The notes under the pieces were generated by a model. The model worked only from the letters and a program-made list of their open reading frames with translations. It did no database searches and was not told where the DNA came from. Both the position numbers and the translations under genes were made by a program. A DNA stretch of 64,000 bases from Bispira polyomma (taxonomy: Eukaryota): the NCBI GenBank assembly GCA_965649765.1, contig OZ287750.1:68882001-68946000 (forward strand). Reading direction: 5' to 3'. Shown one piece after another: positions 6,300 to 57,540 of the stretch (its first letter is position 1; each line of letters begins with the position of its first letter).

Positions 6300-7160
6300 T
6301 TTCTAGACATGAGACGCTGTTAAGATCAATTGGATGATAATTGACTGATTGATTTTTGATTGAAATGCTAAAAATCTGTATTTTTTTGCTATCTCGGAAA
6401 CTATTGGAATTTTGGCTTTTTCGTAGTATAAGTTATTCATCTACTTTTTGATTTTATGTATGATGTAAAAATCTCATGGTTTTAAGCGTAGTACTTAATG
6501 AGTACTGAGTACTTCAAATGAGTATTTTGCTCTATTTTGCTCTGTCTTGCACTTTTATTAACTTTCCTTTTGAAGTACCTCTCACAGTTCAATGAAATTT
6601 GGCATGCACATTGCAAATACCAAAGCATAGATGACTGTAAATTTTTAGATTAATCTTGTGATAATTGACTGAGTGACAGGGTTGATCAATTGTACAAAAA
6701 AAATTGGGGAAAAAAGTGTTGATGAGTGCTTGTTTCAGCAAGTGGGGGTTTTATATATTTTTAATTTTAGACCAATTTTAGACTAATTTTACATGCAGCG
6801 CCCAAGTTTTTTAAAAAAGCTTCAATTTTCATTTATTTTTTGCCCCATTCCAAAATATGCAATCGTTACTAATATGTAACAATTTAAATTGAAAAAATCT
6901 CAGTAAAAGGTGCTGTATAGAACGATTTCGAGCTGATTTTCTGATTCTGTTATTATGTAAACTTTTTAAAAAATTTCGATTTTGGTGGCCACCTTGAATT
7001 TCTGCGTCTTTTTCAAAAACGTCTGTTATCTTTGAAATGGTGCCAGATAGAACAATTTCAAGCTCAGTTTTGACCCACCTGGTTGATTTTGGTTATATGT
7101 CAACTTTTTCAAAAATTCCCGATTTCTGCGGCCATCTTGAATTTTTGCGGTTTTTTTTTA
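6300..7160 (+). mobile_element. Truncated, diverged copy of the Helentron/HINE family also found at 43886, 52920 and 57541
   Basis: Shares TTGCTATCTCGGAAACTATTGG, AAGTTATTCATCTACTTTTTG, GAGTACTTCAAATGAGTA and satellite units with the full copies; termini are missing. Confidence 0.8.
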
Positions 7161-8633
7161 AAACTGTTTTTGCAATTAGTTATTAATCGCTGTGTCTTAC
7201 AACCCTGTCGAAAGACGTGTTACCTTACTTGACCTCTTCGGTCTGGTGGGGGTTTGGTGTGTTGAGTTTGTCACCAAATATTGGGCCAAAAGTGGTCAAA
7301 ATGATGTCCCAGCTCAGATAAGATGCCGCTGAGGCCAAAGGAGGAATCCTTTTGAGTGGTGCTCTTACTAGGACGGCTCCAGATGCAGTTGGGTTGGTGG
7401 TGCTGTAGCTGGCTACTGGATTTGTGGGTTAAGGTAGTCTGACGTATGCGGGTGGTGTGGAAGTCTCCATCTGGGGACGTTCTTGCCTAAGAGAACTACC
7501 TTCCCTCGCCTTTTTCTGCTGGTCGTGCTCCCGTTGCTCTTTAGACTTTGTGGTGTACTTCTGCATCATTAAGAAGCTCTCCATCTTAAAATCATTCATG
7601 AACTTCAGGTGGATTGTCTTGATTTGGGCTTACCCCCTGCCGTCTTGTTCTCTGATGGCTTAACTTAGATGGATTCAGCCTTCTCTTGCCACATCCTTTC
7701 CCTTTTCCAAGAGTCTTTATAGTCGGACTCTGGATGAGAAGGTATTGTCACCGGATTACTCAGTGTACCAATGGATCACTAACCGATTGCAAATGGATTG
7801 CTTGTGATGGAAAAAGATTAGTATTGGATGGCTTCCTACAATAATGAAGCACCAACAGCATGGCTTTGTATTGTAATCGGAGTGTGACGGGTGATCTTGA
7901 AATAATTTACATATTTTCATGAACAGCACACTCTTTCCGGTCGCTTCCTGAAGTAATATGGAGTTATCCTTCATAACACGTTGTCACACAGACAGAAACG
8001 AAAGATCTCTGTGTGAAGGCCCCATTAGTTACGTGTCAGAATAAGTCATAGTGATTTACTTTTTAACATGTAATTTGAAACAAAGTTGAAACAAATTTAA
8101 AATGTTCTGCTAAGGAGAGGTAGTATTTATTGCAAAGTTCATTACACGTTTTGTGACGTTCATAATGTTTTGAGATGTTTCATAAACTTTTTGTGAGATT
8201 TTATAATGAATCTGCTTCAGATGAAAATGTAACAAAAACGGCCACTTTTTCAGTACCTATTACCACATGATGCTACATACTGGCAAGTTAATGCTACTTA
8301 ATGCTGCTTACTACTACTTACTGCCACTTTAGTAAAATGTTTTGTGACGAAAACAGATGATTAAAGAAACGGACAACTCTGCAACTATTATTTCAAACAG
8401 TTTGAAATAATCGGAGGGAACTCTCATTTTGTGTGACATTTCAAAAAGTAGTACTATTGTATCTGCTCAACAGAGAGGTGTGACTGGGACATTATCCAAG
8501 CCATCCTTTCATGCTTAATAAGAAATGTTCAACAGCACACAGCAGTTAATTTACTGGTTTCAAATTTTTATATTTAAAAATATCAGAGAAATAGATGTGC
8601 TAATATGATATTCAATATTTAACATATGCATAC

Positions 8634-10239
8634 CCGAAATATCTTCAAGCTTTAAACTTGAAAACGCCCTTCCCCTCAAAGCTGTTGGTTGGCTGCAGTG
8701 CAAATCTATTCTTTTCCCCGTTATTTCAAAAATCCAAGCAAGAGCGTTATCACACACAATGGGGTTGACTTCTGCATACAAGTGTAGATATGTAACATGT
8801 GGAGCATAGATTCTAGGCAGAGTTTCAATATCATTTTCTGATATAGCAATATATAAAGAGCCATGTCTGTTAGGAAATGAGAACAGTTCTTCAGGAATTG
8901 ATGCAATGCTATTTTTGTGAATCCATAAATGGCTGAGATGTGTGTCAATACCTCTAAAATCTGGAAATGTGGTTATACCATTTTCAGCGAAGGATAGATG
9001 TTGTGGGATAACAAGAAATGCTAACAAAGCATTGGTGATATTTAGTGGCACCTGCTGAGAAGCTAAATAAAAAATTTGAATACTTCGGCCCAAATTGGCA
9101 AGGGCAGGCAGATCCTTTATGGCGTTTCCTGCCAGATGCAACTGATATAGTGAAATCAAACCTGGTAGATCTGGAAAGCAGCTGAGTTTGTTATTTTGCA
9201 AGTTCAATATTCTTAGTTTTCCTAAAATGTTTAACATATCATACTCCAGTGTCTCAATCTGATTACTTGCCAGATATAAATCTGTCACAGAATCCTTAAT
9301 ATGTGTCAAGTTTGGGAAAGTAGTGAGTCTAGTATTATCCAAAACTAGAATTCGAAGCTTCTGATATCCCATAAAGACATCTGAACTGATGTTTGCTATG
9401 GAATTGCTTTTCAGAGACAAGTAATTTAGTTGAGGAGTGATATTTCCAAGCAAAGGGAATGCAGTAAATAAGTTGGCTTCCAGGACTAATGTATGGAGAA
9501 AGTCTGTTGACTCCATGGTATTAGGCCAACTTTGTATTTTATTAGCATGAATCTGAAAGTTGTTTAGTACCGTCATCCTGTTAAAAATTTTGTCCGATAT
9601 CTCTGCAATCATATTGTTTGACAAGTAAAGTAGTATGAGTGTGTCCCCAACATATGTTAAATTAGGAAAGTGTGACAGAAGATTCCATCTCAAATCCAGG
9701 TGTGTTAAGCTTGTTAGATTCTGGAAATCTTCAGCTGTCGTTGTATTGATCTGATTTGAATAAATATCTAGTCTTTGTAAATTACTGCCTGCTCTGAATA
9801 GCCTTGGAAATGTGACAAACTGGTTGACTTGTAGATAAAGATGGTACAGAATTAAATTTGGAGCATCAGGAAATGTAGCCAACCTGTTGTTATTTAAGTA
9901 TAAATAGATCAGCTTGATTAGTTTGTTAATCAGTTCAATCGGTATAGTATCCAGTTGATTGTATCCGACATAAAGATGTGTCAGTGTGTTCTCGCAGCCG
10001 GTAATATTTGGAAAAACTGTTAGATCATTATAATTTAAGTTTAAGTTGGCCAAACTTGTCAAATCCTGTAGATCGTCCCCTGTTACTTCTGAAATATCAT
10101 TATTATGAAGAATGAGTCCAGTGGTATCATTACGGATGTCCTTTGGTATTGCCGATAATCTCCTTGAGCGTAAATCCACAGTAACAGTATTCGCACCCAA
10201 AGCCAATAAAAGCACCACAAACAGGTTAGTAATCAGCAT
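8634..10239 (-). CDS. Large first coding exon of a secreted or cell-surface leucine-rich repeat protein
   Basis: ATG at 10239 starts a hydrophobic signal peptide (MLITNLFVVLLLALGA), followed by about 20 LxxLxLxxNxL repeats and an LRRCT cap (NPIVCDNALAWI...LHCSQPTALRG). A phase-1 donor G|GTATGC follows at 8634/8633, so the ORF-track tail to 8560 is probably intronic. Confidence 0.9.
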
Positions 10240-11649
10240 GATTTCAGTCTCATGTAAAAATTTGTCCAAATGGTTTGAACAAATGTTTCATTAGATACAC
10301 GTATATGGAACTAGCCAAATATCTTCTATTTAATTGGCCAAACTCTTTAATCAACCATTTATAACCAAACACTTAATTTCCCCAGAGCTTGCATCAGAGC
10401 CTATAATTTAATAAATAATGATGTATACCAGATTGTAGTAAAACACTGCAACGATTGGCCACTTCAAAAAGGCCTTGTAAACGCCTGAGAATATTTGCTG
10501 AAACAAATTTCCTAGGTTAATTTTTTCAGACAATTTAAACTTTAACCATTTATCTCTATTAGCCTGTACAGTCCAACACTGTTGACCAACTACATTTGCC
10601 TGTATAGACTAACAAGTGCTATATAATTCTGTACTGATGCCAAAATAGGGTGTGATCTTTTATAAATCCCTTTCATAGTTCCCTTTCCATCCACCATAAC
10701 ACGATTACTGAATAACAATTCTGATTTTTTTGCGCCTTAGAATCCGCTAGTACGAAGATTAAGTGCCATTACAGAATTGATGAGATTAGATATAAAACAA
10801 TAGGTTGTGTAAACAATACGTGTATTGTTCAGCATGCTTTGATTACATTCAAGCTGTTTTTCTATTTTATTGTGAACTATCAACTCTTACTTTTCAGTTT
10901 TTGGGATGTAGAATATAATGTAGAAAATATAGATTCAGAGAGAAGTATTTTATCATATTTAAAATATATGGTAATTCGGGGTGATATTCATAGTTTTGTA
11001 GCAATCCAAAAAAAAGGACTAAAATATTGTATCTCACTTTTCTTACTTCATTTTTCAACCTTCATTTGAAACTAGGTCCACAGTTGATATCCCCCTTTTT
11101 GTAAAACAATCGAGGATAAACGACACTACCAGAATATATTGTAGACAGTAATTTTAAAATTTGTTGTTTTATTTAGATGCAGGTTTGCTGCAGCTCCAAA
11201 AACTATTTAACGTGTGAGAGGGGACTCCCTGGATCCCACTAGATCCGCCCATGTTAAGACACTTTTAAGTTTAGTGAAACAACACCTATATATCTTGTGC
11301 ATAATTCATATCGTTCACCCAGTCTAGTTTTAGCTTTATAATATTGTTTAATTAATGAGAATGTATGGAAAATAAACATTAACCATTTGGCAAGATAGAG
11401 GTCCCTTTATAATGAAAAGGACATACCGACATATGGCTGAAACTTTTGCTGTGATCTAAAACTGTTCAGTGGCTTGTTCCTAAGCCTATAAGCATATGAC
11501 CTTGAAGTAATCAAGCATAGTTCATGCAAGTTTCAACCTTGCATTAGACAAATCATTTGGGATATATTATATTTATTTAAACCTTCTATATTATGTACAG
11601 ATTGTATAAAGCATTAATAATTATAAAAGTAAGTTTGAGTTAACCATAA

Positions 11650-11895: not shown

Positions 11896-12472
11896 TAAAT
11901 TTGAATAAAATTTCTAAAATGTAAATTTGTAAAGTATCAGATGAAAAATCACGATAAAATAGAATAAAACAGACACACTAACAAGCGAAAACCTAAAACT
12001 AATTAAAACAGTTGCTATAGCATATTCAAACCAACGTTCAGTTTGTGAATTAAATTTCCCTACTAAGCTTACTTAAGCCTTAATAAACTACAACCCTTAC
12101 TTATAATAATGACTGTGCTGCAACAACTTAACCACATGTAAATTTCCGTTATGACATAATTTCATTTATGACAAAATTTACAAAACGTTTGTGCACATCT
12201 GCTGTAGGCTGTTGTGTTTTTTTTTTTGTTTAAGATGTGACTCCACACATTTGTTGACCTGTTATTGTATGACCTGGGTTATATGAAACTGCTAGACTGA
12301 TGTCAGCAATGTAAACATGAATTATGGTGAAACAAATAACATTAATACACAATTTATAATAACATTTTCATGTGAGGCAAAATTTGAGATACATACATGG
12401 GTACTTATAATGCGAGTGATTATCACCCCCATCTTCCCTAAGAGCTAAAGGGACCCTGGTGTTAGCTAATAA

Positions 12473-12850
12473 AAGGGAGTGGAGACAAGGTGGAGACACC
12501 CATCATGGCTAACAAGGGAGTGGAGACAAGGTGGAGACACCCATCATGGCTCACAAGGGAGTGGAGACAAGGTGGAGACACCCATCATGGCTCACAAGGG
12601 AGTGGAGACAAGGTGGAGACACCCACCATGGCTCACAAGGGAGTGGAGACAAGGTGGAGACACCCATCATGGCTCACAAGGGAGTGGAGACAAGGTGGAG
12701 ACGCCCACCATGGCTCACAAGGGAGTGGAGACAAGGTGGAGACACCCATCATGGCTCACAAGGGGATGGAGACAAGGTGGAGACACCCACCATGGCTCAC
12801 AAGGAAATGGAGACAAGGTGTAGACACCCATCATGGCCCACAAGGGAGTG
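12473..12850 (+). repeat. 41-bp minisatellite, ~9 copies
   Basis: Unit GGGAGTGGAGACAAGGTGGAGACACCCA(T/C)CATGGCTCACAA; copies are nearly identical and decay at the right end. Confidence 0.95.
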
Positions 12851-13928
12851 TCTAAGTGCAAAACAACACCCTTCAAAGCCCCATTTTAAAAATGGGAATA
12901 TTGATGGGGATGAGAGTGGGAATAAATTGTTGCTTAATAATAAAATAGCGTATTGTCCCTTAGAAATCTTATTGTAAAGTGTCAGTTAATTAATTTTGGC
13001 GGGAAAATACTGTGTATGTAGGCCAATTGCTAGCCAGTAAAGTGAGAGGTCAATTAAAATCTTTGTTGTTGCTATAAACAGTTACACATTATTGACATAT
13101 ATTTCAGCATTTCATAAATGTATATATGTATTTATGAAGATATATATTACTGTATATGTTAACACAAAAACAAATATTCAGATGAATGACAGTCTGTAAC
13201 GTAATTTGAAATAGGGCATAATAGTATTGCTAAAATATCAGTAAACATAATGCAAAATATAAAGCGTAATAGCCTAAAAAAATAAACATATAAATATATA
13301 ATAATAAAACATTCTTTAATTATTATTGTTTATGAAAATGTCATTGTGAAATCGAACCTCGCTGTTCAACTTTGAACAATATTGTTAGTTTGTGTGGTAG
13401 CCAGGGAAGGGCTAGTAAGGTCAATGCTAGGTAGGGACTTTCTTAAGAACTTTTCTGGTCGGCATGACCCCGCTTTTGATTGGTAGTAATTAATCTAATT
13501 CACACAGCTTTCCCGCCAAATAGCCAAAGGGGTTCACTTACTAAACTAAAGTCAACAAGGCAACAGCCATTTTAGAAAAAACAAATATTTTTACACTTGT
13601 TTTAATTTTTCATCTTATACTATGTTACTGTGTTCTATATGAAACTTTTGAGAACTCAAGAGGAATCAGTACCGACTTGTGGATCCTACTGGAGTGTTGT
13701 GGATGATCTTATGCTTTGATATATGCGCTTACTGCTCTGACTGATTGTGGGAGCAAATTGTGAAGGGACGTACTTCTATTATCACGTTTATTCTAGTCAT
13801 TTTACATTTATTTCTACATTCAAGTCTTGCAGTCGCACATATCAAAGCATGGTCTGTGTATATTCTATTTCAGTGACATTATATTTTATGAACTAATAAA
13901 CAGAGATGACACCTCGTAAACTAAGTAC

Positions 13929-14107
13929 CTGTATCCTGCAACATGTGCGTCTCCTGATGTTACAGGAACATCTCCAGTCAGCATCTTAAATGTACTAGTT
14001 TTTCCAGCACCATTCACACCCAAAAGACCAAAGCATTCTCCTTTGTGAATACCAACAGCAATGTCTTTAACAGCTTTGTAATTCTTTTTTACAATGCGCT
14101 TATACAC
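13929..14107 (-). CDS. ABCA-family transporter exon (NBD2 Walker A)
   Basis: TTGCAG| acceptor and |GTACTT donor. Encodes VYK...[47 protein letters not shown], the ABCA NBD2 signature. Confidence 0.93.
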
Positions 14108-14484
14108 CTGCAACATGCAAAATGAAAATTTGAAGCAAACTAGGAAAAAAAGCTTGATAAAAAAAATTGTTGTTGTCATGTGAACTTTAAGTAGGTGAAA
14201 ATTTATGAGAATATTTGCCATTCTAGTCATCTGTGGCCATTGCAAGACTACACAAAACATTATAAGTCCATATATTAGTTAATGTATGCTAAACGTCATA
14301 AAATTTTTATTTACATCCACAGGTGAAGATGACACAAGATGAGACAATACACCTTTCATTGCTAATCTGTTGAGATTCCTGAACTGGTTAAGGTCTGAAG
14401 TTCTGGATTGTCAAGTGTGCAGCAAACACTGACCCTATAACCAAGGACATATTATTAGCTGGACCATTCATCCAAACATGTTAC

Positions 14485-14877
14485 CTTACTGAGTCCCTCA
14501 ATCGTGAGAATGTCGTCTTGTGTGTCTCCACTAACCAATCGCTGTCTTTCTCTGCTCACATCAATGTCTTCTGAGCTGGCTCCCATTGGATTATCCGACT
14601 TGCTTTTCATACATGGTAACTTATTATAGAAAAATTTGTACTCCATCAACAGAGTAATTGTGAGGAAAATACACCCTTGGATAGCCAATGCCAGTATATT
14701 TCTGCCAACAAGATGCCAACTGAAAGGATCTTCAAAGTAATCTTCTCCAAAAGTTGCAAATGCATCGGCCACTATCTGGTTATGTGTCATATCTATTAGT
14801 CCACGACTGAGACAATACTGTGGGAAAATGAGGAACACCTTCCTGAGAGTTTTGTTGATCTCATACAACTCTTCATC
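14485..14877 (-). CDS. ABCA-family transporter exon (end of TMD2 and linker)
   Basis: TTGCAG|GAT acceptor and AAG|GTAACA donor; 393 bp, phase 0/0. Encodes LRKVFLIFPQYCLSRGLIDM, FSWHLVGRNILALA and EDIDVSRERQR, typical of ABCA1-like proteins. Confidence 0.93.
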
Positions 14878-15612
14878 CTGCAACAAAGTGATAACTGACA
14901 ATGTTGGAGTTGTGTTGACAATGATATATAGATATTCTGACTTAAAGCTTCAAAGTAAATATAGGGCATATGTTTGGTAAAACTAAGATTTGTACACATT
15001 GAGCTTTTCTGTGGTGATATTTACCCGGTACATACACTTATAATTATCTTATAAACAGTTACAATAAACATAATGCTAACAAAAGATAAAACCAGACTAA
15101 AACTTGGGAACTTTCTGTGTCCAGGACAAGTACTCTTGTACATGATAATTCAAATCAACGAGTGTAATACAGGTGGTAATGAGATTTATTTGTAGGCCGA
15201 CACATATTCGTTACTCTGCTAACTATATATGACCAGGCCAAGTAGTTAGCAATCAATAAATGAAACAGGTTAACACTCAATTACCAACAGAGCGTCAGTT
15301 ACAGGCTAATTACTCATTAAATGCTCAGTCATCAATTCTCAAAAGTTTGTGACTTACAGGCTAATTACTCATTCACTTAAAAACTAAGTAATCCCACTAC
15401 TCAATTACTCACTAAGCTAGACCTCTCAAACTTTACAATGCATCACAGCCAAAACCAGCTGAGCTGTTCAAGTAGCTAAACAAGTTATTTATTCTAATTC
15501 CCATATTGTCCCTCTGATAGTGAGAAGGAAATTAACTGATTTCATTAAAATCACACTTCTATTCTAGATCAATGAACCAACGACATTTCCCAGGCTTTGA
15601 AAATGAGCTTAC

Positions 15613-15856: not shown

Positions 15857-16030
15857 ATTCAAAAACTTAAAAATGCTTAGGTATAATAAACCCTTGGTCA
15901 GCCCAACATGGCTTTCGGGCCTGACGACCCTCAAGCCATATTGTCCCGACCTCGGTGCATATTTTCCAGTTTTGCCCTCACAAACAGCTTATATTCTGTA
16001 AATATATATATGCTGCCTATTTAAGACCCA
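15857..16030 (-). repeat. 174-bp inverted copy of 37757-37930
   Basis: Manual reverse-complement comparison gives 3 mismatches in 174 bp. Confidence 0.92.
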
Positions 16031-16201
16031 GGGGTTTACAATGTATTTGCCTGTATTGGTAAACAATTTTAGGTGGGAAATTTGCCGCCCTGTGGAAGGC
16101 TCTAATGAGTGTGGTGGGCTGACGCCCATGCGACAGCCCCCCTCAGTTCTGGTGGCAGGTCACTGGGGGGCCAATTAGGCCACCTGGGGTCACGGGGGCA
16201 A

Positions 16202-16211
16202 GTATAAAAGG
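16202..16211 (+). promoter_or_regulatory. Putative TATA box of the DIRS-order element
   Basis: GTATAAAAGG in a GC-rich island, with CCAAT at 16171, about 140 nt upstream of the gag ATG. Confidence 0.5.
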
Positions 16212-16342
16212 GATTGCCGCCAACAGGCGCCATCATTAGTTAAAAACAGTTCATAGATACAAGTGTTTTACAATTGGGGCTTTTACTACCCAGGGCTTTT
16301 ACTACCCAGATATTGTTTTAAATTTTAATTGAATGTGTAGTC

Positions 16343-17338
16343 ATGCCTAAGGAATACCCGTGTAGTGTATGTTCTGGTCGGCACGAACGTCCAGTTGGGA
16401 AGAAATGTAAATTTAATCCGTTGGACAGCGTCGCTGATGAGGTGGCTGCCGTTGATCCTGCTGTGCCTGCTGTTTCTGATTCCGTATCTAGTTTGATACT
16501 TCAACAACTGGTCGTGATGAATGAAAAGATGGACAGCATGGATCAACGAGTACAAGCTACTGAGGCGGCGCTGTGTAAACCCAGCGCACAGGCATGTAAC
16601 ACAGTTTCTAAATCTGTATCTAATGTCCCTAGTGTTAGTGAACCAGTGTTTGAGGCCGTTGTGCCCTCCCTAGATTACCTGCGTTCAAATTCCGGCTTAC
16701 AGAGTCAGGTAGACCAGCGCTTGCTGCAACTGCAACAACTCAATGATTTAACGAGAGGTAAACTGAAATCCCAAAGAGGTGGCGCGGAAGCTCCTGTTAA
16801 ACGTCATGTTGATTGGCCACAAAATTTTGTCTTATCTGTTGTAAAAAAGGTTAGACCCACTTATGATGACCTTACTTTGGTTCAGTTCGTCTCCGGGTTT
16901 GTTCGCTGTACGCAAGAGCAAAAAGAGTCCTCTGTCCGCGAGGCCATGTTGGAATATCTGGCATGTCTGATGGATGACGCCCATAACTTTTCGTGGGACG
17001 CCGCCAAAGCCGCTCACGCCATTTTGTTAACCAACATGGAAATGGACCGATTGAATTGGATGGATGTCGAAAAGGTCGACCGGGTAAGGCGCGCTCATGC
17101 ACAGCGTCATGTAACGTCCTCATCTAGTGGGTCTGGCCTTTCTAAAAGCAATGTTGGCAGTAAGGGTAAAACCTCGGTGAAAACAGCTGGAGTAAATTGT
17201 CGGTTCTTCCAAGAAGGAACGTGCAAATTTGATGCCAGCCATCGCACTTCTGGACAGTGGTTCAAACACTGCTGTGAGAGCTGTGGTGGCACGCATCAAA
17301 CCAAGTTGTGCTCCAAAAAGTCGGTGTCAAAAAACTAA
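16343..17338 (+). CDS. gag: Gag-like protein of the DIRS-order element
   Basis: Intact 331-aa ORF with an N-terminal CxxCxxxH..C motif, a coiled-coil segment, GKLKS and WPQ/YDDLTLVQFVSGF core, and C-terminal Cys/His fingers (CRFFQEGTC...H, HCCESCGGTH). Confidence 0.85.
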   Translation: MPKEYPCSVCSGRHERPVGKKCKFNPLDSVADEVAAVDPAVPAVSDSVSSLILQQLVVMNEKMDSMDQRVQATEAALCKPSAQACNTVSKSVSNVPSVSEPVFEAVVPSLDYLRSNSGLQSQVDQRLLQLQQLNDLTRGKLKSQRGGAEAPVKRHVDWPQNFVLSVVKKVRPTYDDLTLVQFVSGFVRCTQEQKESSVREAMLEYLACLMDDAHNFSWDAAKAAHAILLTNMEMDRLNWMDVEKVDRVRRAHAQRHVTSSSSGSGLSKSNVGSKGKTSVKTAGVNCRFFQEGTCKFDASHRTSGQWFKHCCESCGGTHQTKLCSKKSVSKN

Positions 17339-19869
17339 GGGGCCACTGCAGTATTGCAGTGGCTGCTAAGAAACTTGTACATAAAACCTGCTCTAGAGTT
17401 GTATATAATTCTACTTTTAGGGATTTTAAACTGTTTGATCATGTGTGTTGTAAATATAATGTGTGTACTGGACCCCGAGTTAACAGGTCATACCGGGACG
17501 TGTTGCAACAGGGCCTTGTGGTTACTGATACCAAGATTTGTGGAAACCGGGAAATGGGAAAAGTTAACACTGTTTCTGTTAATAAAACTCCCCAAGGTAG
17601 CAAACTCGTGTTCCATAATTCATCATTGCACAAGGTGTCGGGAAGGAAGCATTCACCCGTGAAGGTGTTAAATACACCAGCTGACAGGCGACGTGAGAAA
17701 ACAAATCACCAAAAGGTGTTAAGAAAAACACCTTTGGGTGGTGTGAAAACATCCGTGAATAGGTGGGTCGGTAACAATGCAAACCGGGTGTTACAAAACA
17801 AACCAATTGCGTCCAAAACAATTGAACTAAGTGATGGCGAAGGGTGCCCTAAACTTCTGGTTTCTCCGAGTGTGAAAACAATTGGCGCGGGTACCACTCC
17901 AAGTAATGCTAACAATAGTGGGTTTCGCCTTCCCATTCATAACCGGTTTAGTTGTTTAGACATTCCTGATGTAGAACTTCCTGACTCGAGTGACACGTTA
18001 GGTAAGGTCGATTTCACACCTAATCCACCACCTAACAAGAGATCTAACCCGTGTGATGACAAGTATGTACTGGACCTCTCAGGAGGCCTTGATAAAAGAC
18101 AGCGCTTAAATGCAGCTAAAGATAATGTGACCCACAAGTTGTGGGATATACAGAATAGTGGAAAGTATGGGTTCATACCAACTAGTTCCTGGGGTACCCC
18201 AGTGATTGATTGTTCCAATAACCAATTGATCACAGACGTGTTTACACTACATAAGTCCCTTAAATTGGATGGGAGACCAAATTATAAGGGTTTACAAGTC
18301 CCCATACACACCCAACTGACGGTCCCTGCCTGGGAAAAGTACTTAGCGAATTATTGGGATTGGGAACTCCCCTTACTGATAAAATTCGGATTTCCTCTTG
18401 ACTGTAATGAAGAACACGAGTTCAAGTCTGACTTGAACAATCATGCTTCAGCCAATCAATATCCTGAACATGTGAACCATTACCTGAAAGAAGAATGTTC
18501 TATGGGTGCTATGTATGGACCTTTCGTCCATCCCCCAATTGATGATGTGCACACATCCCCATTTATGACTAGAGACAAATCAAGCTCGGTTAACCGATGA
18601 GTCATAATCGATCTGAGTTGGCCCATCGGTCATTCGGTTAATGCAGCCGTGTCATTGAGTTCGTATCTGGACAAGGAATTTGTACTTACTTACCCTTCCA
18701 TAGATGACATAACCCAACAAGTGTTGCAAAACGGTAGGGGCTCCTTGCTATTTAAAGCGGATATTAGTCGCGCATTCCGTCACGTGACCCTAGACCCCAG
18801 AGACATCAATTGCCTGGGCTTATACTGGGACGGCTACTATGTCGACGGCTCGTTGCCCTTTGGCTACCGACACGGTTCAGTGATTTTTCAGAGAATTTCT
18901 GACGGTATAAGGTATATAATGGAAGGTGAATGTCATCAAATCACCAACTATATAGACGATCTGTTATGTTCTTCTGTTCCCTCAAAAATCTATAAAACGT
19001 ACCACCGACTGCAGGCCCTTTTGGCCGAGTTGGGTTTGACTCTCAGCAAGAAGAAGCTGGTTCCTCCAGCCACCCGGGTAACCTGCCTAGGCATAGTTAT
19101 AGATACAGTTCGGTTCACTACATCGATACCAGAGGACAAACTAGCTCAGGTTCAAAAAATATGTGGCAATTGGAGTGATAAAAAGCAGTGTACTAAGCGG
19201 GAGCTCCAATGTTTATTGGGTTCTTTGCTATATATTTCTAAATGCGTGAAGTACTCACGATTTTTTCTGAATCGGATGTTGCAACTCCTCCGAAGCAATC
19301 ACCACAAAAGAAGTATGAAAATTAACCCTGAGTTCAAAAAGGACCTTAACTGGTTCATTGAGTTTCTCCATAAATACAATGGGGTGACATTTTTTCATCA
19401 TGCCCCCATTACTGACATTGTAGAGTTGGATACCTGCCTAACAGGCATGGGAGGAGTGTATGGCAAACAAGTATATTACCTTCCCATTCCTGCTGCTATG
19501 CAGAAACATGATATTGCTTCATTGGAGATGCTTAACATTCATGTGGCTTTGAAATTGTGGGGCAAATACTGGCAAGGACGTAGACTGTTAATTAAATGTG
19601 ATAACCAGGCTATTGTAAGTGTCCTTACTCATGGTAGAACTAGAGATAGCGAATTAGCCCTGTACTCGCGGAACATATTCATGCTGGCTAGCCAGCTCAA
19701 TGTAGAGATACAGGTGGTTCATATTCTAGGAAATGACAATACCACTGCTGACCTCTTGTCTCGCTGGACAAATTCAATTAAGGATAATGTTCTCTTACAG
19801 GAGCTGGTGGGCAATGTCCAATGGTGTGCCGTGACAGAGGACCACTTACTGCTTAATCACCACATTTAG
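17308..19869 (+). pseudogene. pol: RT/RNase H ORF of the DIRS-order element with a single nonsense mutation
   Basis: ORFs 17308-18600 and 18649-19869 share a frame. The TGA at 18598 falls in R*VIIDLS (likely CGA>TGA). RT motifs KADISRAF, LPFG, YIDD and CLG, and RNase H motifs ELD.C..GMGG, LEMLN, CDN and ADLLSR are present. Confidence 0.92.
17329..17364 (+). promoter_or_regulatory. Putative -1 programmed ribosomal frameshift signal (gag to pol)
   Basis: In-phase heptamer A_AAA_AAC (17329-17335) directly before the gag TAA, a 6-nt spacer, then a perfect 9-bp hairpin GCCACTGCA-GTAT-TGCAGTGGC (17342-17363). The pol ORF is in the -1 frame. Confidence 0.8.
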
Positions 19870-19951
19870 ATATTGCTTTGTCTGGTTGCATGGTATTATG
19901 TTGATCAACCTTTACAAATGTTACTTTGTCTGCTTTGTGTTTGTGTTATAG

Positions 19952-20940
19952 CTAGAACTCCCCTGCAGCAGTTATTATATCTAAATGCAACGAAGAAGCT
20001 TCACCTGGCCTTCTGCAGGTCTACAGACAGATCTTATACTGCGATGTATAGGGTGTACCAAGCTTATGCATCCTTCTCGGATCTGCCTTGTGACCAGGTG
20101 ACAGCTATTGATCTTCTTGCTTTTTTAGAATTGTTACACTTTAACTCTGTAAAACCTGCCCATATGGCCAATTATTTATCTGCTATTAAAGCTAAGAGTA
20201 TTGTATACAATGTGCCCATTCATGCCTTCAGTGACCCTCGCTTGGCTTACTATCAAAAGTCTGTCCAATTAGCTGCCCCCTTAAATGTTCAGCTCAAAAA
20301 GATTATAGACATACCTCTTCTGACTAGTATTGTCAATGTCTCCAACACCACTTACATGGGTCCTATCTTTACAGCTGTGTATTTGGTCAGCTACTTTTCC
20401 TTCCTGAGGTTATCCAACTTAGTACCTCATTCCTGTCTTCAGTTTTCTGCTTTAAGACATCTATCAAGGGCTGATGTTATGTTTCACAGGGACAAAGCTG
20501 TCCTTTTGGTAAAATGGTCCAAAACAATGCAGATTAATAATCAGATTAGACTTATTACTATCCCACGTTTGGTGGGTTCCCCTCTTTGCCCTGTGGGGTC
20601 ACTGCAGGCAATTATGGCTCTTACTCCGTCTGAACCTAATTCACCCTTATTTCAATTGAGAGACAAATCTCACTGGGTTCCGCTTACTGACACCCGTGTC
20701 CGCAGGCATTTCAAAACGATACTTGCCAGGCTCCAGTTGCAGGATTCTGGCCTCACACTGCACGCTTTCCGACGTTCGGGTGCCACTTTTGCCTTTAACC
20801 ATAACGTCAGCATTCAGAACATCCAAAAACATGGCACTTGGACGTCGGATTGCGTGTGGAGGTATGTTACCGACTCAGTGGATGCGGGCCAGCAGGTATC
20901 GGACACATTTCGCCATCATCTTGCTACTTCTTCTTCCTAG
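19952..20940 (+). CDS. Tyrosine recombinase of the DIRS-order element
   Basis: Catalytic residues are intact: FLRLSNL (R), KWSKT (K), HAFRRSGAT (H-x-x-R), HGTW and VWRY (Y). Start is given as the predicted splice acceptor; the frame is open from 19870. Confidence 0.92.
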
Positions 20941-22075
20941 CTTCCTACTTGCTGGGTTTGGGTCTTTCTACTCAAAATTTAGTCTATATTTTCATATTCT
21001 AGATAATTATGTAACTTTTGCATTACATGTAGTCACATGCTAGTCATGTATAGTGTCATATAGAATTTAAATTACTATTTCACTTGCTAGTCATTTCATG
21101 TTACAACTATAAAGTTAACTTCACAGAGTAGTATTTTATTTCCTAGTAATTGTATGCTACAACTAGTAATTCAACTTCATGAAATAACTGTTTCATTAAA
21201 AGGTAATAGAATCTGTAATTAACTGCAAAATTACAACTTAACTCTTCTTCTATACATTTTAAGGTCACCTCAATTTCGTTAATTCCCCTATGGGTTAAAA
21301 TTTTAGTATACTAACCTGTATTTAAGGTGATCTTTAGCCCCCTTTTGTAGTCTAAATTATAAGATCATCTCCATTTATAAGTCCCCTACGGGCTTTGTCC
21401 TTTCACTTATTTAACTGTGTTGGGGTGACCTTATCTTGTTCTTTGAAGTTATGTAAAATATTATTATTACTTTCACTCAATTTAGTATGACTTAAAGTTA
21501 CAAATTATCATGACCTTAAGTCACGTTGCATATAGTAGTTTAACATAGACTAACAATAAAATATTTTACCGCATTCTGCTTACTTACTATCTTGCCTTCT
21601 TGACCTCTGACCCTTTGGCCTGTCACGTGGGGAATGTTCTATTTTTAGACCAGTATGGGGAAACTGACACCTGACGCCAGCACAAAGCACATGTTTAGCT
21701 TAGCGTAATATGATTAACGGGATACATTAATGTGCTCTTTATATTAAAATAAACGTGACTTTTATTGTAAACAAAACATCAATAAAGCTAGGTCTCAGCC
21801 GAATAATTTGGCTCACTAGAACCCATCAAATCCTCATTTTCAGGGTAGACTTATATTTTATGTGTTTTTGATGTATGTGTGTGCATATGACATTATAAAC
21901 AGATACTTATTGTAACAAAAGTTTAGCAGCCATGCATATATTGAATTATTTTTATTGATGTATATGTATATAGAAAGACAAAATAAAGTCCATGAAACAC
22001 ACACACAAAAAAACTCTTTTAAGATGGCAGATTTTCAAATTCTTCAATTTTTTCTAGAGAGGACGAGCACTTTTC

Positions 22076-22329
22076 TACGGAGCCCTGGAGGGGACATTCT
22101 AAATATTTTTTACCCAGATTATTTTGTTCTCCTGGTTTATAATTCATTAGCACAGTTTATAATTTGTGAGCACAGATTATAATTTGTGCACACGGTTTAT
22201 AATCTTTTCTCACAGTTTATAATCTGTGTACACAAATTACAAACCATGCGCACAGTTTGTAATCTGCGAGCACAAATTAATCTGGGTAAAAATATTCACA
22301 ATGTACAATGTCCCCTCCAGGGCTCTGTA
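22076..22329. mobile_element. 254-bp IS3EU-like MITE
   Basis: TIRs TACGGAGCCCTGGAGGGGACATT...AATGTCCCCTCCAGGGCTCTGTA; 6-bp TSD CTTTTC at 22070-22075 and 22330-22335; internal short CACAGTTTATAATYTGTG repeats. Confidence 0.85.
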
Positions 22330-23253
22330 CTTTTCTGATAGGACAACAATATTATCTGAAATGATACTGACAACAGTAATATTCATGAAACTGGCTAACT
22401 TATGTAAAATAATGATGAGATGACGTTTGTGGTGTCAACTTATGTTAAAATAATAATGAGATGATGTTGTAGTTTATTAGGTAGCTCATTATGTATTAAG
22501 TAGTTCACAAATACATCTAATATTATATGCACGCAGATCCTTATTAGAGTACAAACACGTGAAGGACTCTGGAAATTGCCAGCCAATATCTGGGTGCAAA
22601 TTTTTGTATTTATTATTAACAGCTTTTTTATTGCAAAAACATTTCACAACATAAAATATTTAAAGGTAAAAAGTTTATTGTTTTCTTACCTTAGAGAATG
22701 GCATTGCGTTAAAGTATTGACATGCTCCTTTTCTAAAGCATACCAAGCTGTTAAATGCATTTAATTATTTATTAACATGTCTTTGATTGGGACAAAGCCT
22801 TCACCTCAATTTCCAGCTGACCAATTTTAAGTTATGCTTATTGACCTATATATTATCTATGATGGTTAAGTTCAATAATACCAGTGATTTAGAAAAACAA
22901 ACAAACAAATAAATAATTAAACATTTACTCAGTGACCAGAGTCGAGTCCATTTTTGACCTTGAATTAACACAAATATATAACACAATATCTCTTGGTATA
23001 TTTTGTTTATTTTTCATGCATTCCTTCGTATACAGTATAACATACAAATATTAGCCAATATGCTACCACCCTGACAGTTTTGGGTTTTATTACACACAAG
23101 TATAAGCCAATGGCTACCACCATTACAGATTATGTGATTATTTGAAGTGAATACTAGAATAATAACCACCCCAACAACACTTAATTAAATTAACATATAA
23201 GGCAATAACCTAATAACCTTAGAATAGCCTTAAGGGGAGGAGGGGGGGGGGGG

Positions 23254-24950
23254 AATAAAATTATACCTCCGTCCCAGTTGGTGCCAAAAATGTACTGCGA
23301 CAACTAACGCTTTATTCTTTTGACAGTTCATTTCCTGATAAGGATATGGCCGATTCATGTTACTCATGTAGTGAGCACAAACGTGCCTGAGCCAGACATT
23401 GCCTACTTTGTGATCTACACTGGATTCACAAGTGCCCGACTGAAATTTAGTACATACTTCCTTGTTATTGGAGAAACTGGAAGCTGACTTAACATATCCC
23501 GATTTGGCATTAGCCACTACTTGTCTTTGGGCAAACTGTCATCGAATATCATTTACTTTATCCGGTTCCGCCCAGGTTAATAACCAGTCCTCCATACTAC
23601 ACATAACAACCCTATGCGCCCCTTTGGCTACTGACTGACCGAAGTCCATGGCATTTTGAAGTAACTCAGTACTAAACTTAAGCATGTTTTGCTGAATTTG
23701 CAAATCGGATTCTTTAAGAATACATCTATTAAAACCCAGAGACCATTGTAGCAATGTAAGCTCTTTATATGTCACTCTTTTACAGTCACTTCCAATGAAA
23801 CACAGATCATGAGGCCAACAAACGAACCTCTCACAAGGGGTTTCCCCTCCAACTCTAAACTGACCAGACTTAACTTTCCTGTTTCCTGTTCCTTAGCTTT
23901 AAAATTTGACATACCGAAGTCCAGTACTTGATCCTCCTGGTCCTCCATCTCCAGTAGTCGCCTCTGAACTTCCTGTTGTACAACCAAATCCGAACTAACA
24001 CCATTCAAACCTGATCCAAAAGTTTGTAACTGTTCATGTGACAATTTCGCCCCTCCCAGTGAGGGAGAAATCTTCAGAGAGTTAACAGATACTACTGGGG
24101 CAGTAACTGTTGCCCTAACACCAGAATTAGCCACCACATCTGAACTTGTACTCGATTTAATAGTATCCACCCGTTTCATCAGCTGCGAGTTAACATCCTT
24201 CAAAGAAAGCACCGCCTGTGTCAGCTGGCCTAACTGCTGAAGTACATCTGACGTCTGAGGATCACCACTGCCACTGATAAGCTGTTGCCCAACATCTGAC
24301 ATCTGACGCCCATCACTGCCAAGGTTTAGCTGTGAATTTATCTGATCATTCAGCTCTGAGACAGGAAGCCTGCTAGCAGCCTCGGCTGTGAGTCTCACCT
24401 TGACTACGCTTCTTGTTCCTGTACGACTAAGAAAACCGACCACTTGACGCTGGCATAGACATTGGCATTGATACGTCAACCAGACCTCAACCCTGTGCTC
24501 AACCTGACAGTCCGAACAAGCTGTCGTTAGTCCCTTTCTGTTTACTCTTCTTAGGCTTCTCCCCTGGCAAACTAGCCATCGCTGGGACAGTCACTTTGCT
24601 GGTTTTAGTTGCTACTATCCGACCAGCACTTAGTCCTTTAGGTTTCTTGAAACTCCTTATAACTGCTATAGACCAGTTAAAATTAAAAGCGAAACATACA
24701 CGAGTTTTGTGACGAATCTAGGCACCAACTGGGACACTAGTATCTCTATGAACACACAAATATATATAAGTACTCTCTGTGAATGTTTTCTACTCCGTTT
24801 CTCTGGAACACAAATCCGGTGTTACCAATAAAAACTATCTCTGTAACACAAATCCGGTGTTACCGTTATAAAATATCTCTGGAACACAAATCCGGTGTTA
24901 CCAATAAAATTATACGTCTGTCCCAGTTGGTGCCAAAAATGTACTGTGAC
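23254..24950 (-). mobile_element. Degenerate gag-only DIRS-order element bounded by 48-bp direct repeats
   Basis: Frameshifted pieces are homologous to the 16343 Gag: CSDCQVEH finger; TYKELTLLQWSLGFNRC vs TYDDLTLVQFVSGFVRC; AKGAH vs AKAAH; CTKFQSGTC...H...WLRHVC vs CRFFQEGTC...H...WFKHCC. Direct repeats at 23254-23301 and 24903-24950 differ at 3 positions. Confidence 0.8.
24800..24910 (+). repeat. 3 x 38-bp tandem repeat inside a 16-bp inverted repeat
   Basis: TCTCTG(G/T)AACACAAATCCGGTGTTACC x3, flanked by GGCACCAACTGGGACA (24721-24736) and TGTCCCAGTTGGTGCC (24919-24934). Confidence 0.85.
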
Positions 24951-25435
24951 GTCTAGAGTCTTCTACAAAAGTAGTTCGGCTAGACATCCCTGACCCCAGT
25001 CACTGAACGAGCTTGCTACTAGCCGGTGTTCTCGCAACCTCACCAGTAACACAAGAAATTTTATAGTTAATACACAAGTAACACAATTAAAATATAATTT
25101 ATGATAAATATGTGTACATTATAATATCATACCTAGACATATATTTAACATTAAACATATATGAAATATATGAAATAAACATGATATATAATTAAAGATT
25201 TTTCAACTGAAAGAGATATATCTTACATAATATAAAGGAATATAAAATGAGGCCATTTGACTCATTCAGACAAAACCTGTTGCTATTATTTTTAAGTTGT
25301 CATCACACACTCATAAGTATTGTTGGTAGTACGATTTTACAATGAAAAATGCCCTCTCAGATTGTATCGTATATATTCTTAACACTGTTGTAAAATAACT
25401 AGCAATTTCAATTTATAATTTATGAGGTTGTTATT

Positions 25436-30249: not shown

Positions 30250-31517
30250 ATGGCATTTTTTGGTCCACCAGTAGTAAGTGAAATGATGGCGGCAAGAAGG
30301 CATTAGCGGCAGGCAGCAGGCCTAGTGTTGTTGGCCTACTTCAGAAGGAGGAGGCGAAGGTGGGACAGGCAGTACTGGGTGAGGCCCTGGATCAGCAGGC
30401 GCCTGCAGTTTGGTGACTATGACAACCTTATGGTGGAGCTGGAGATAGAATCACATGGTGATTTTCTGAACTACCTGAGGATAGAACCAGTGATGTTCCG
30501 AGAGTTGCTGGACAGGATGACCCTCCGCCTGACCAAGAAGGACACCAACTGGACGCCTGTCCTACAGCCTGGTATGAAGTTGGCCATCACTTTGAGATAT
30601 CTAGAGTCGGGTAACAGCTACCTCAGCCTGAGCTATGGCTTCAGAGTGCCCTACAACGGCATTTCTGTGATTGTGAAAGAGACATGCGAGGCCATAGTGG
30701 AAGAATACGATACTAAGTTGGTGAATATCCCCACAACTCCAGATGCCTGGCTTGCAGTGAGTGACAGCTTTGCAACCAAATGGAACTTTCCTCATGCTGT
30801 GGGTGCAATCGATGGGAAACACATTGCAATCAAGGCTCCTAGGAACACTGGTTCAGTGTACCACAACTACAAGGGCTTCTTCTCCATTATCCTCCTTGGT
30901 GTGGTCGATGCAGATTACCGGTTCATCTTTATAGACGTCGTTGGCAACGGTTCAACATTCGATTGTACCATCTACAACAACTCGGACCTGAAAACAAAAC
31001 CGGACAATGACACACTGGGTCTACCGGCTGAGCCACTTCCACATGATGATCAGGACATCCCTTACTTGTTCATCGGTGACAATGCCTTTGATTTGGCTCC
31101 CTACATGATGAAGCCATTCTCCCAACGCAACATAATAGATGAAGAGAGAATATTAACTACAGGTTATCTTCTGCTCGAAGGATTGTTCAGAATGCCTTTG
31201 GTATCCTTGCCAATAGGTTTCGCGCCCTGCTGACTACTCTTAAACAAGAGCCAGAAACTGTTAAGTCAATAGTGTTGGCATGCATTTGCTTACACAGTCT
31301 AATGCACAACCAGTACCCAGTATTGCAGAATGCGGCAATGGACCATGAGGGAAACGATCACCAAGTTATTCCTGGAGCCTGAAGAGCTGTCTTTGCAGAA
31401 TGCCAAAATGTCAGGCGTCGCACACAGTTTTCACGTAGGGCCAAGAGACAAAGGATATACTTAAAACACTATTTATATAATGTTGGTGCTGTGCCATGGC
31501 AGAGAGACATGATTTAA
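30250..31517 (+). pseudogene. Harbinger DDE transposase, disrupted
   Basis: Motifs WVRPWI, KLAITLRYL, WNFPHAVGAIDGKHI, YHNYKGFFSIILL, FIGDNAF and C-terminal VPWQRDMI. There is an early TAG at ~30304 and a frameshift near 31150. Confidence 0.92.
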
Positions 31518-37457: not shown

Positions 37458-38732
37458 TCCAGTAGGCACTCAACATTTTTTGATATCAAATTTTTGTCTA
37501 TAAATGGACATACCGCCATTTCGACGTCATTTTGGCATCACAATGTATTGACCATATATTTAGACATCATTAAGACATCATTATAATGTACACTATCTGA
37601 CATATATTTAGATGTCATTATGATGTACACTATCTGACATATATTTAGATGTCATTATTATGTTATGACATTCCTCATATAAATTCATGTAGAAGAGAAT
37701 TGTGGGAATGGTCATTTTTGTAATTGCCCAGCAGGTACACAGCAAATATGATTATGTGGGTCTTAAATAGGCAGCATATATATATTTACAGAATATAAGC
37801 TGTTTGTGAGGGCAAAACTGGAAAATATGCACCAAGGTCGGGACAATATGGCTTGAGGGTTGTCAGGCCCGAAAGCCATGTTGGGCTGACCAAGGGTTTA
37901 TTATACCGAAGCATTTTTAAGTTTTTGAATAAAGATATTCTTTCAATAAGGAATTTTGGTCCCGACATCTATTTTTGCCCCTTACTCCTGTGACGAGTAT
38001 ATCAACAATTTAACCATGGCGGAAGAAGTCACCAGTGTATCAAGAACGTTTAACAGCAAATTCAATATAATGTATCTACATTTGTTAATTGTGTGTTAAA
38101 CTATAAATTTTTAATATCCCTTGTATAAAAACACAAATAATCAATTGTGCTTGCTAAACTTTACAAGTGATATGGCCTGCTGCATTGATATGGCCCCCGA
38201 CTCCCGGGCCATATCGGGAAATATGGTATGTCATGTGATCGCATTTTAAACAATAGGATCGCTAGATTTGCCGCCGAGGTATAATAAATATATAAATAGA
38301 TGTATGGGTCCCATAAATATGGAATGCATGAACATGAATTTAAAAAAATTATCTAAAGCACAAAACAGCTTAATTATTCAGACACTGACAGCCATAAGTT
38401 ATACTATATTATATTAGTTATATACCAGACATATTTCTTACAGATTTTGTCCACCTGAAATGTATGCACCACTTTGGTAAGGCTAAAGGTGGAAGGGTAA
38501 AGGCAGTTGCTAAAATATACTGCCTGCACCTACCCCTGTCCCTTCTCGTCCTCCTCTTAACCCCCCTCCCCCCCTGTTTCTCTCAGATACTCCTCATTTA
38601 TTGGTTGAATTTGAAAGTTCGATGTCATATATCTGACGTCTAAATGACATCATATTTCTAAAAAAGATGTTAGTTAGACATCGGGGTGGTACGTCATTTA
38701 GACATCATTTAGACATCCTTTTGCCTGCTGGG
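37458..38732. mobile_element. Non-autonomous CCCAG-type (EnSpm/CACTA-like) element inserted in the Gypsy integrase
   Basis: Ends TCCAGTAGGCA...TGCCTGCTGGG with a 2-bp TSD GA (37456-57, 38733-34). Removing it restores the integrase reading IEIDPLEDTLSKTII. TAGACATC subterminal repeats are present. Confidence 0.8.
37780..38290. mobile_element. Possible non-autonomous Crypton-like element nested in the CCCAG element
   Basis: Sits between (AT)n tracts and has asymmetric internal inverted motifs (TTATTATACC / GGTATAATAA; CAATATGGC / GCCATATCG) with no TIR/TSD pair. The family assignment is from recollection of similar elements only. Confidence 0.4.
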
Positions 38733-47545: not shown

Positions 47546-48400
47546 TCAGTTTGTTAGCCTGTAGAACTGATTAGCATTCTGCAAGGTCACTGTCACAACC
47601 TCTTCCACTGTCAACCCTTTGAGATCTGTGATCCTTTGGGCTACGATCAGAATGCCATGAGGGGAGTTATAGGAATACATCCGATGCTCACAAACCTTCA
47701 AGTGGGGAGACTCAGTTTTAAATAAGATTTTCTCCAAAGGCAGTCCCTTAATCACTTTCTCTATATCAGGATGACGCTCTGGCCTCAGTATCGACCCGGT
47801 GAACCCAAATTTTACATTTGGGAAAGTGTTTTGCCATTTCTCTGCCTCGCTGACTTCCCCATTGTAGCAATGCCTGTGTATTTTGTACCTGTCCTCTTCA
47901 CAGGCTGGCAACTTACTACACATAACCTTCAAAGACAGTTCAGTTGCATCTGTGTCCTGGTTATAATCCCAGCAATGTATGACCAGGACTTTGGAGAATA
48001 GTTGTTTTTTCACATAGAAGCCTAAAAGATCTTTGAGGATCGCAACTTGATGTTGCATCAGTGCTGAGTGACCTGAAGTGCGCTCAATCCCCATTTCTCC
48101 AATAGCCACGCATCGGGGTTAACTCTCCACCAGAAACTTCAATAGATCCAGATGGGCTTTATTGGCTTTATGAGCTTCCTTTGGGTGAACCCAAAATGCA
48201 AACCACAGACCGCTATCCCTCTCTATCTGACGCAACTCCCTGTTGCTTGGCAAGTCATCGCAAAAGTTCGCGACCGCTGCTTATAAATAAGCACATACAT
48301 AAGGCTGGGGACCATATTTAAGCATAGAATCCAGATGGGAATACCTGCTTATGCGTCTGGTTCTATCAAAGTGGAAATGATAATCCTTGAAGAGCAGTTT
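47546..48400 (-). pseudogene. Intronless TatD-family (TATDN2-like) nuclease domain, disrupted
   Basis: The frame of ORF 47546-48109 extends upstream through two stops: DYHFHFD (48365-48385, D-x-H-x-H motif), ANFCD, FWVHPK (GxHP), then VAIGEMG, VIHC, IHRHCY and LPLEKILFKTESP (ETDSP). All TatD motifs are in order. Confidence 0.88.
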
Positions 48401-52450: not shown

Positions 52451-52919
52451 TTATTTCCTAAATCACGAAAACGCAACTTAAAAGAAATTTGTAGCAAGTA
52501 ATTGAAATTTCAAACTAAGCGAAATTGCCTCACACAATTTGAACACTTGAATCTTTATTTCGATAAACCTTTTCAAAACAAACTTTACCACCCAACCACA
52601 ATTGTAATAAAACACAACTTAGTCCAGAATATATTTTATTCCAATCAAACTAGCCTATTTTACTCTAAAAAATCACAGAACGTGCAACTTGACGAGAGGA
52701 ATTTGTTACTTAACTAGTTAATTGGTTAAAATTTTAATAACTTTCAGCTTGGTCAATCTAATCTAATTTACTCTGAGAAATCACAGAGCATGCAACTAGA
52801 ATATTTAGTAACTTGACTAAGTGATTGATTTCTAATCAATAGATATTGATTCACTATATCATGCAAATTTTATATTTGCGAAATAATAGCAAGAATTTAC
52901 ACTTAAATTTTTTTTCTAT

Positions 52920-56756: not shown

Positions 56757-57540
56757 TCAGCAATGGTACACAAATTAGACATATCTAGTATATCTGAGAA
56801 GACCATTAGGTCTACAATATAATCTCAATATCAAACATATTGCAGCAAAATCAAAATGATGTAGAGATCTGAGTTCAGGTAAAACCATACAACTCCTGCA
56901 AAGAATTTATATTAGAACACTAATGAGGGAACAAAAGGCTATAACAGTTAATTTCGCCCCATCCTGAATGAACAAAATCTTTAGTTAATCAACTAAGGCT
57001 ATTTATAGTGATGAGTGATGCACTGTCTTATAGGAGTTGGTGTAGTTTTTATCAGCGCTATGTTCATAAAATACTTATCAATGTTAAAGGTCAATTTTCA
57101 TGAACAAAATGGCTGTCACAGCCAAAGCGGCAGTGATTATTTGAAGGATAGATGCATTAGTCGACTGACAAATATAGCGACTCGAACAGCTGTCTTTTTA
57201 TTGTAGATGTGCACATAGATCATACTAAACCTCTAAACTATAAAAACTCTAATAGATCCTCTCAAATATCGCAACAACAAATAAAAAAAGCTTAAAGGTA
57301 ATTTATAAAATCTTGGCACATCACCTAATCACTACAGTTAACTAGACATCTGTTTATGGGGCCCTTTTTCGTGGTAAATTTTTCAACGTGTTGGAGGTGC
57401 ATGGCAGTAACTTATTTTATTACTTTTGTCAGGAGATTGTCTTTACATTTCTGTTTGTAGGTGTAATAAATCAAAACGGACATATGTGACAATTAATCGG
57501 TCAATAATAAATTAAAAAAATATTCAGCTGTTGTTTAAGT

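Follow-up and report, generated by a model that had tools for sequence, protein, structure and literature searches.

The heptamer A_AAA_AAC is among the most shift-prone sites for −1 ribosomal frameshifting, and most structures that stimulate shifting begin 5–9 nt downstream of the heptamer (PMC5009743; here and below, papers are cited for those excerpts of their text that were available). The same A6C run, with spacers of 6–7 nt, is tabulated for human T-lymphotropic virus (HTLV), bovine leukemia virus (BLV), mouse mammary tumor virus (MMTV), and astroviruses (PMC3835772), and pol lies in the −1 frame in 28 of 51 animal long terminal repeat (LTR) elements (PMC5009743). For Ngaro, frameshifting has been proposed at the overlap between the reverse transcriptase/RNase H (RT/RH) open reading frame (ORF) and the tyrosine recombinase (YR) ORF (Poulter and Butler 2015, as quoted in PMC13003380). 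How the start-less enzyme ORFs of DIRS-order elements are expressed has so far been guessed rather than shown. Here we describe a Ngaro-like YR retrotransposon copy (16110–21637, forward strand, as are all element features below) in a 64,000-nt stretch of the Bispira polyomma assembly (GCA_965649765.1, contig OZ287750.1, 68,882,001–68,946,000; the window). Its gag and pol ORFs meet at a 36-nt cassette of heptamer, spacer, and hairpin, and comparison of DNA and protein sequences indicates that programmed −1 frameshifting at this cassette very probably yields a Gag–RT/RH fusion. The mechanism is a textbook one; the place proposed for it here is the gag–pol junction of a Ngaro-like element.

The cassette at the gag–pol junction

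The gag ORF (16343–17338) encodes 331 aa with C-terminal CCCH/CCHC zinc knuckles and ends in TCA AAA AAC TAA, that is, in S-K-N-stop. Within this terminus the heptamer A_AAA_AAC (17329–17335), with a C before it, stands in the gag phase. It is followed by the 6-nt spacer TAAGGG (17336–17341), which includes the gag stop (TAA at 17336–17338; TGA in other copies), and by a predicted stimulator hairpin (17341–17364) whose arms, GCCACTGCA (17342–17350) and TGCAGTGGC (17355–17363), form 9 bp around the loop GTAT, extended by a G17341–U17364 pair. The pol ORF (17278–19869), comprising a long linker, RT, and RNase H, occupies the −1 frame, which is open from 17278 on. The original prediction had described this arrangement of heptamer, spacer, hairpin, and −1 pol frame, and every part of it was found in the sequence; its statement that pol has no ATG for its first 82 codons needs correction, as the first ATG is at 17554, 92 codons past the upstream stop and 73 past the shift site. 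Present together are the features by which a −1 frameshift signal is recognized: an in-phase X_XXY_YYZ heptamer before a zero-frame stop, a downstream ORF in the −1 frame, and a predicted stable structure beginning 5–9 nt downstream (here, after a spacer of 6).

The predicted energy of the hairpin is −15.6 kcal/mol with 9 bp and −17.2 kcal/mol with 10 bp. A 35-nt piece picked around it folds with z = −5.6, and 0 of 200 shuffles are as stable. The window has 1214 XXXYYYZ heptamers, both strands counted; ranked by the hairpin 5–9 nt downstream, the cassette comes first among them (−17.9 versus −12.4 for the next), and −15 is reached at 0.13% of 3000 random positions. Rfam has no match to the cassette at E ≤ 1.

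In the proposed mechanism, ribosomes translating gag would be held up by the hairpin, which lies 6 nt past the heptamer, and a fraction of them would slip by −1 on A_AAA_AAC, by tandem slippage, into pol, producing a minority Gag–RT/RNase H fusion. The remaining ribosomes would terminate at the TAA directly behind the heptamer and release Gag. By analogy, the slip efficiency would probably be in the range of several to ~20%. Because the element encodes no protease, the fusion would stay uncleaved, and the recombinase would be supplied from a separate, spliced GagN–YR message.

Contigs of the same organism from three runs (one study, two samples) were aligned on 17270–17420. Summed depth before, across, and after the cassette, which is not a measure of copy number, is 3314, 18688, and 2289 in X1, 671, 2815, and 493 in X2, and 918, 4671, and 497 in X3. 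The depth thus jumps 4–6-fold over ~17329–17362 and drops on both flanks in all three runs. Among the contig ends listed, 16–20 per run are loose at 17327–17329 and at least 20–22 at 17362–17365; because of these loose ends at the borders, other families appear to share only the piece from heptamer to hairpin, with flanks that cannot be aligned. The sole substitution listed inside the cassette, where differences near contig ends are not listed, is TAA to TGA. The variants listed for the pol linker are uninformative, as synonymous changes are in excess in no frame (8 of 28 for pol).

The Gag proteins of relatives bear on the same site. An intact last zinc knuckle is kept in 54 of 99 Gag homologs, and K-N stands shortly behind it in 46 of the 54. 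The preceding residue is S, T, P, or A in 46 of 46 cases (versus 26% in neighboring tail positions), and the stop lies at most one codon from K-N in 43 of the 46. The restriction to S/T/P/A can be explained because a fixed N-C-A AAA AAC requires an N-C-A codon before K-N; the residues ahead of S/T/P/A-K-N vary freely. A tree built from 107 Gag cores whose knuckle is intact puts the window protein inside a 76-row clade (support 100/98), of which 65 rows end in K-N; K-N is also present in 12 of the 14 rows of another clade, and a 15-row clade is without it in 12. S/T/P/A-K-N ends are found in 119 of 143 copies fetched for the closest clade, and in a more distant set of 145 representatives the knuckle is found in 62, K-N in 40, and S/T/P/A-K-N in 32. 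The original prediction had made conservation of heptamer and stem in intact relatives a test of the signal; such conservation extends across the window's family but is not universal in the group. No longer, fused Gag–Pol proteins occur among 7987 candidates, which is weak evidence.

Covariation of the stem, the other comparison that the original prediction had called for, was deduced via fixed codon positions of mutant copies whose Gag proteins run into other frames. The +1 frame gives QKTKGPLQYCSG in the window and QKTEQPLQQCSG, QKTRWPLQQCSG, QKTNQALQNCSA, and QKTNRALPYGSA in relatives; the −1 frame gives KKLRGHCSIAVA in the window and KKLGNHCSGAVV in P0501. The comparison bore the prediction out: the in-phase heptamer is kept, the spacer is constant at 6 nt while its sequence and the position of the stop change, and compensatory changes can be deduced at three of nine stem pairs. 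Pair 2 changes from C-G to G-C (P-to-A together with G-to-A) in P0204, P0209, and P0350, and the same change is compatible with P0180 and P0340; pair 9 changes from A-U to C-G (Q-to-P together with C-to-G) in P0209; and pair 1 changes from G-C to A-U in P0501 and P0538. After filtering, a stem with four or more fixed Watson–Crick pairs is allowed by 5 of 11 distinct +1 read-outs, against 2.2% of 1500 random pieces. Four of the five have a spacer of 6, an arm of 9, and a loop of 4, and one of the five (P0302) has a stem whose sequence is unrelated; the filter did not catch P0204. In P0501, P0538, and P0340, whose A run is longer by one base, Gag reads straight into an open, pol-like frame. There, the pattern R.VYN..F.D in P0501 and P0538 matches the window −1 frame 5′ of the first ATG (4 and 18 of 2000 shuffles), with scores of 39–41 versus 19–26 in other frames.

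Evidence against frameshifting and other routes to pol

Several observations weigh against frameshifting. First, 17 of 143 close-clade copies, in seven clusters, stop at the Ser codon directly 5′ of the heptamer, and these copies could not shift there, because Gag ends one codon before. The rate is inflated, because this stop was the reason for fetching three of the seven clusters. The early stop is confined to Ser-type families, and substitution of K, Q, E, R, or G at that codon is never seen in T/P/A-type copies. The early-stop proteins are P0128, P0129, P0137, P0163, P0390, P0462, P0474, and P0522, with their cluster mates. Such copies may be dead or mobilized in trans; the RT of DIRS-1 works in trans (PMC7192593). 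Second, the distant relatives L001 and L002 have pol in the frame of gag behind a TGA, with no significant hairpin; because of this placement, we regard the cassette as clade-wide and not order-wide. The gag–TGA–pol passages lie at L001:1317–1322 and L002:1456–1461, and L001 and L002 could possibly use readthrough or splicing. In L002 the stop context is TGA CGG, which is leaky in alphaviruses. Third, 22 of 62 distant knuckle-bearing Gags are without K-N, 12 of them in one 15-row clade, and the homologous Gag proteins were possibly drawn from few genomes. Fourth, the covariation rests on protein codon positions, not on DNA alignments. Six of the 11 +1 read-outs fall under the threshold, three of them without any fixed pair; three of the five that pass carry the window's own stem sequence; six of the nine stem pairs have no compensatory change; and the match of P0340 behind the stem does not reach significance by itself (233 of 2000 shuffles). 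Fifth, the contigs stem from a single study of two samples, with contig-end differences unlisted. Finally, the hairpin's 3′ arm contains CAG|TG in phase with a splice donor in gag. Because of this CAG|TG and the six uncompensated pairs, a constraint at the level of the sequence is possible.

The donor in question would serve the recombinase. A predicted phase-1 donor in gag, GAG|GTAAAC (16755–16763; last exon base, 16757), and a predicted phase-1 acceptor, TAG|CT, which follows a U-rich tract (19900–19951) and is in frame with YR, join in frame from 16757 to 19951. Of 139 homologs that carry the anchor motif, 117 have a donor-compatible Gly followed by R, K, T, M, N, or S. Single-base deletions ahead of the YR acceptor, at 19877, 19936, and 19940, occur in other copies, and the same donor/acceptor layout recurs in L001 at 25% Gag identity. 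From phase and conservation, we infer that YR is made from a spliced GagN–YR message.

Of the alternatives for pol, splicing from this donor survives best, although it seems unlikely. A junction from 16757 to CAG at 17357–17359 (possible phase-1 acceptor CAG|TG, 17357–17361), with a branch point CTAAG or CTGAG over the stop, would give GagN–RT/RH, and the cassette would be a splice signal. The acceptor has the right phase (1) and frame; 21 nt before it there is a branch-like CTRA, compatible with both TAA and TGA; the same donor probably serves YR; and copies stopping before the heptamer would still produce Pol. However, the site has no pyrimidine tract (53% in 15 nt versus 67% plus a long U-rich run at the YR acceptor), another AG lies upstream at 17351, and the acceptor AG is buried in the covarying stem. 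Moreover, in K-N-E families the stop moves by one codon or is absent, so that CTRA disappears from copies that retain spacer and stem. Splicing would also leave the A6C run and the N-C-A codon unexplained.

It is less plausible still that the palindrome acts in cis, in replication, packaging, or recombinase binding, and that translation of Pol begins independently at ATG 17554, through reinitiation or on a shorter RNA. A cis-element would agree with the invariance of most stem pairs, and the ATG has a good Kozak context (GAA ATG G). But the hairpin lies at a fixed 6-nt distance from an in-phase heptamer, out-of-frame ATGs at 17441 and 17459 come before 17554, and protein similarity in the −1 frame extends 5′ of that ATG. 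The starts of Pol homologs, moreover, are scattered over 1–240 residues before a common anchor (61 of 120 with the anchor; lengths ≤739 aa). Highly improbable, finally, is hairpin-stimulated readthrough of the stop or a chance arrangement: a zero-frame ORF into which readthrough would lead is present (17339–17662, 107 codons) and two distant relatives have gag–TGA–pol in one frame, but the window pol lies in another frame and the stop varies (TAA, TGA, TAG, shifted, or absent) at constant heptamer–stem spacing, and chance is excluded by the contig-depth island, the K-N ends of Gag, and the top rank among 1214 heptamers.

Programmed −1 frameshifting into pol remains the explanation that we prefer. 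Beyond it, we lean slightly toward a broader scheme for a large Ngaro-like clade, in which one transcript would give Gag, an uncleaved, frameshifted Gag–RT/RNase H, and a spliced GagN–recombinase. In this scheme Gag would tag both enzymes into the particle, early-stop copies would be Gag-only passengers that borrow the RT of sister copies, and other clades would have switched pol to readthrough or splicing. That a single promoter could give Gag, Gag–RT/RH, and GagN–YR without a protease had been part of the original prediction, and the sequence comparisons support this interpretation.

The element and its surroundings

The ends of the element can be fixed because of two joints in contigs. In contigs from the same organism, 21634 is joined to 16110 with three shared letters (TGT), at high depth in other copies, and an empty-site-like joint connects 16094 to 21657; 21603–22100 is a single-copy flank piece. 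The 21634/16110 joint fits B–A junctions, tandem copies, or circles. Split direct repeats (A1-ORFs-B1-A2-B2) are absent from the window copy; the family may nevertheless have them. The TGT common to both ends (16110–16112 and 21635–21637) is what would be expected from insertion of a circle by a recombinase. A 174-nt repeat (15857–16030) adjoins the 5′ flank and recurs inverted, 98% identical, at 37757–37930, with very high depth in public contigs.

A TATA-like box at 16203–16209 is a putative promoter 5′ of gag. The pol ORF of the window copy is interrupted by a premature TGA (18598–18600), because of which this copy is unable to make full RT/RH. Behind it lies the YR ORF (19870–20940), in which R, H-x-x-R, H/W, and Y motifs were recognized by eye and PF00589 matches with E 0.003, below the curated cut-off. 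Pfam searches of the element ORFs gave RVT_1, RNase H-like, and weak Phage_integrase matches and no protease, DDE integrase, or methyltransferase domain. The element thus has the gag-like, RT/RH, and YR ORFs, without protease or DDE integrase, that define the order DIRS (PMC3783388). It also has the Ngaro-like layout as defined in PMC4157794, PMC3783388, and PMC9210276, with no methyltransferase after RNase H; pol stops ~35 residues past the last RNase H motif, as in homologs. A DIRS1-like identity was rejected, as neither inverted terminal repeats nor an internal complementary region was found and a methyltransferase domain is lacking. The earlier assignment to the DIRS order therefore stands, but Ngaro-like is the better name, since there is no methyltransferase domain.

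The pol linker, otherwise divergent, contains an N-R/K-F-x-x-L motif at 17941–17958, which 5 of the 22 homologs that are long enough carry, and a second perfect 9-bp hairpin, with a 6-nt loop, at 17712–17735. The zero-frame ORF directly behind the gag stop overlaps this linker and is hydrophobic.

Related loci were found once in metagenome contigs and once in genome contigs; viral contigs gave none. Among sequencing runs, three were listed as containing the sequence and no RNA run was, which has no bearing on expression. In a motif scan of viral contigs, none of 96 stretches codes for anything related to gag, pol, or YR, and the one that completes the hairpin was taken as chance. Within the window, a second gag (23856–23377, reverse strand; 34% identical) is decayed and has neither pol nor the cassette. 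Its surroundings (23230–24955, reverse strand) contain a 53-nt repeat at the 5′ end and again right behind gag, an inverted copy of 23 nt at a distance of 168 nt, and three tandem repeats of 38 nt. Elsewhere, we recognized by eye a leucine-rich-repeat ORF of 575 codons (8560–10287, reverse strand), ABCA-like transporter exons (13886–14949, reverse strand), a Harbinger-like transposase (30307–31233), and a TatD-like ORF (47546–48118). A dispersed repeat family with internal tandem units of 142–143 nt occupies 6300–7200, 43900–45400, 52900–54900, and 57500–59100, and a 41-nt minisatellite lies at 12400–12900.

Comparison with known systems

Goodwin and Poulter in 2004 and Poulter and Butler in 2015 are said to have noted −1 overlaps of Ngaro ORFs and to have suggested frameshifting, and the idea may partly be in print already. 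Our literature search, which covered excerpts of papers other than the two primary ones on Ngaro, found no gag–pol slippery site described in the DIRS order, a result that does not establish absence from print. Specifically, the available excerpts of PMC3266345, PMC3783388, PMC6681497, PMC8547959, PMC9210276, PMC7192593, PMC4157794, and PMC5009743 describe none.

The analysis has several uses. It provides a 36-nt cassette, together with compensatory variants from nature, for direct use in reporters, and it suggests an annotation rule, namely that S/T/P/A-K-N marks the end of Gag. It also offers an explanation for the truncation of these Pol proteins by gene callers, and it locates the frameshift at gag–pol, not at the RT–recombinase junction of the quoted review.

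Like the Ngaro-like elements described in PMC9210276, PMC4157794, PMC3783388, and PMC8547959, the window element has gag, RT/RH, and YR on one strand, no methyltransferase, and a zinc-knuckle Gag; unlike them, the window copy is without split direct repeats. It also differs from the proposal for Ngaro cited at the outset, as its predicted slip signal is at gag–pol and its YR is apparently spliced. With the deltaretroviruses (HTLV and BLV gag-pro), MMTV, and astroviruses it shares the heptamer, a 6–7-nt spacer, a GC-rich stem, and the passage from a structural gene to an enzyme gene in the −1 frame. Unlike those viruses, it is a YR retrotransposon without protease or DDE integrase, with a stop directly behind the heptamer, and is known here from its sequence; a non-exhaustive search made no pseudoknot partner evident. 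Finally, as in LTR retrotransposons, a shift site of the heptamer type would set the ratio of Gag to Gag–Pol, but LTR elements cleave Gag–Pol with their own protease and carry an integrase in pol, whereas the Ngaro-like element would keep its fusion intact and obtain its recombinase from a separate message.

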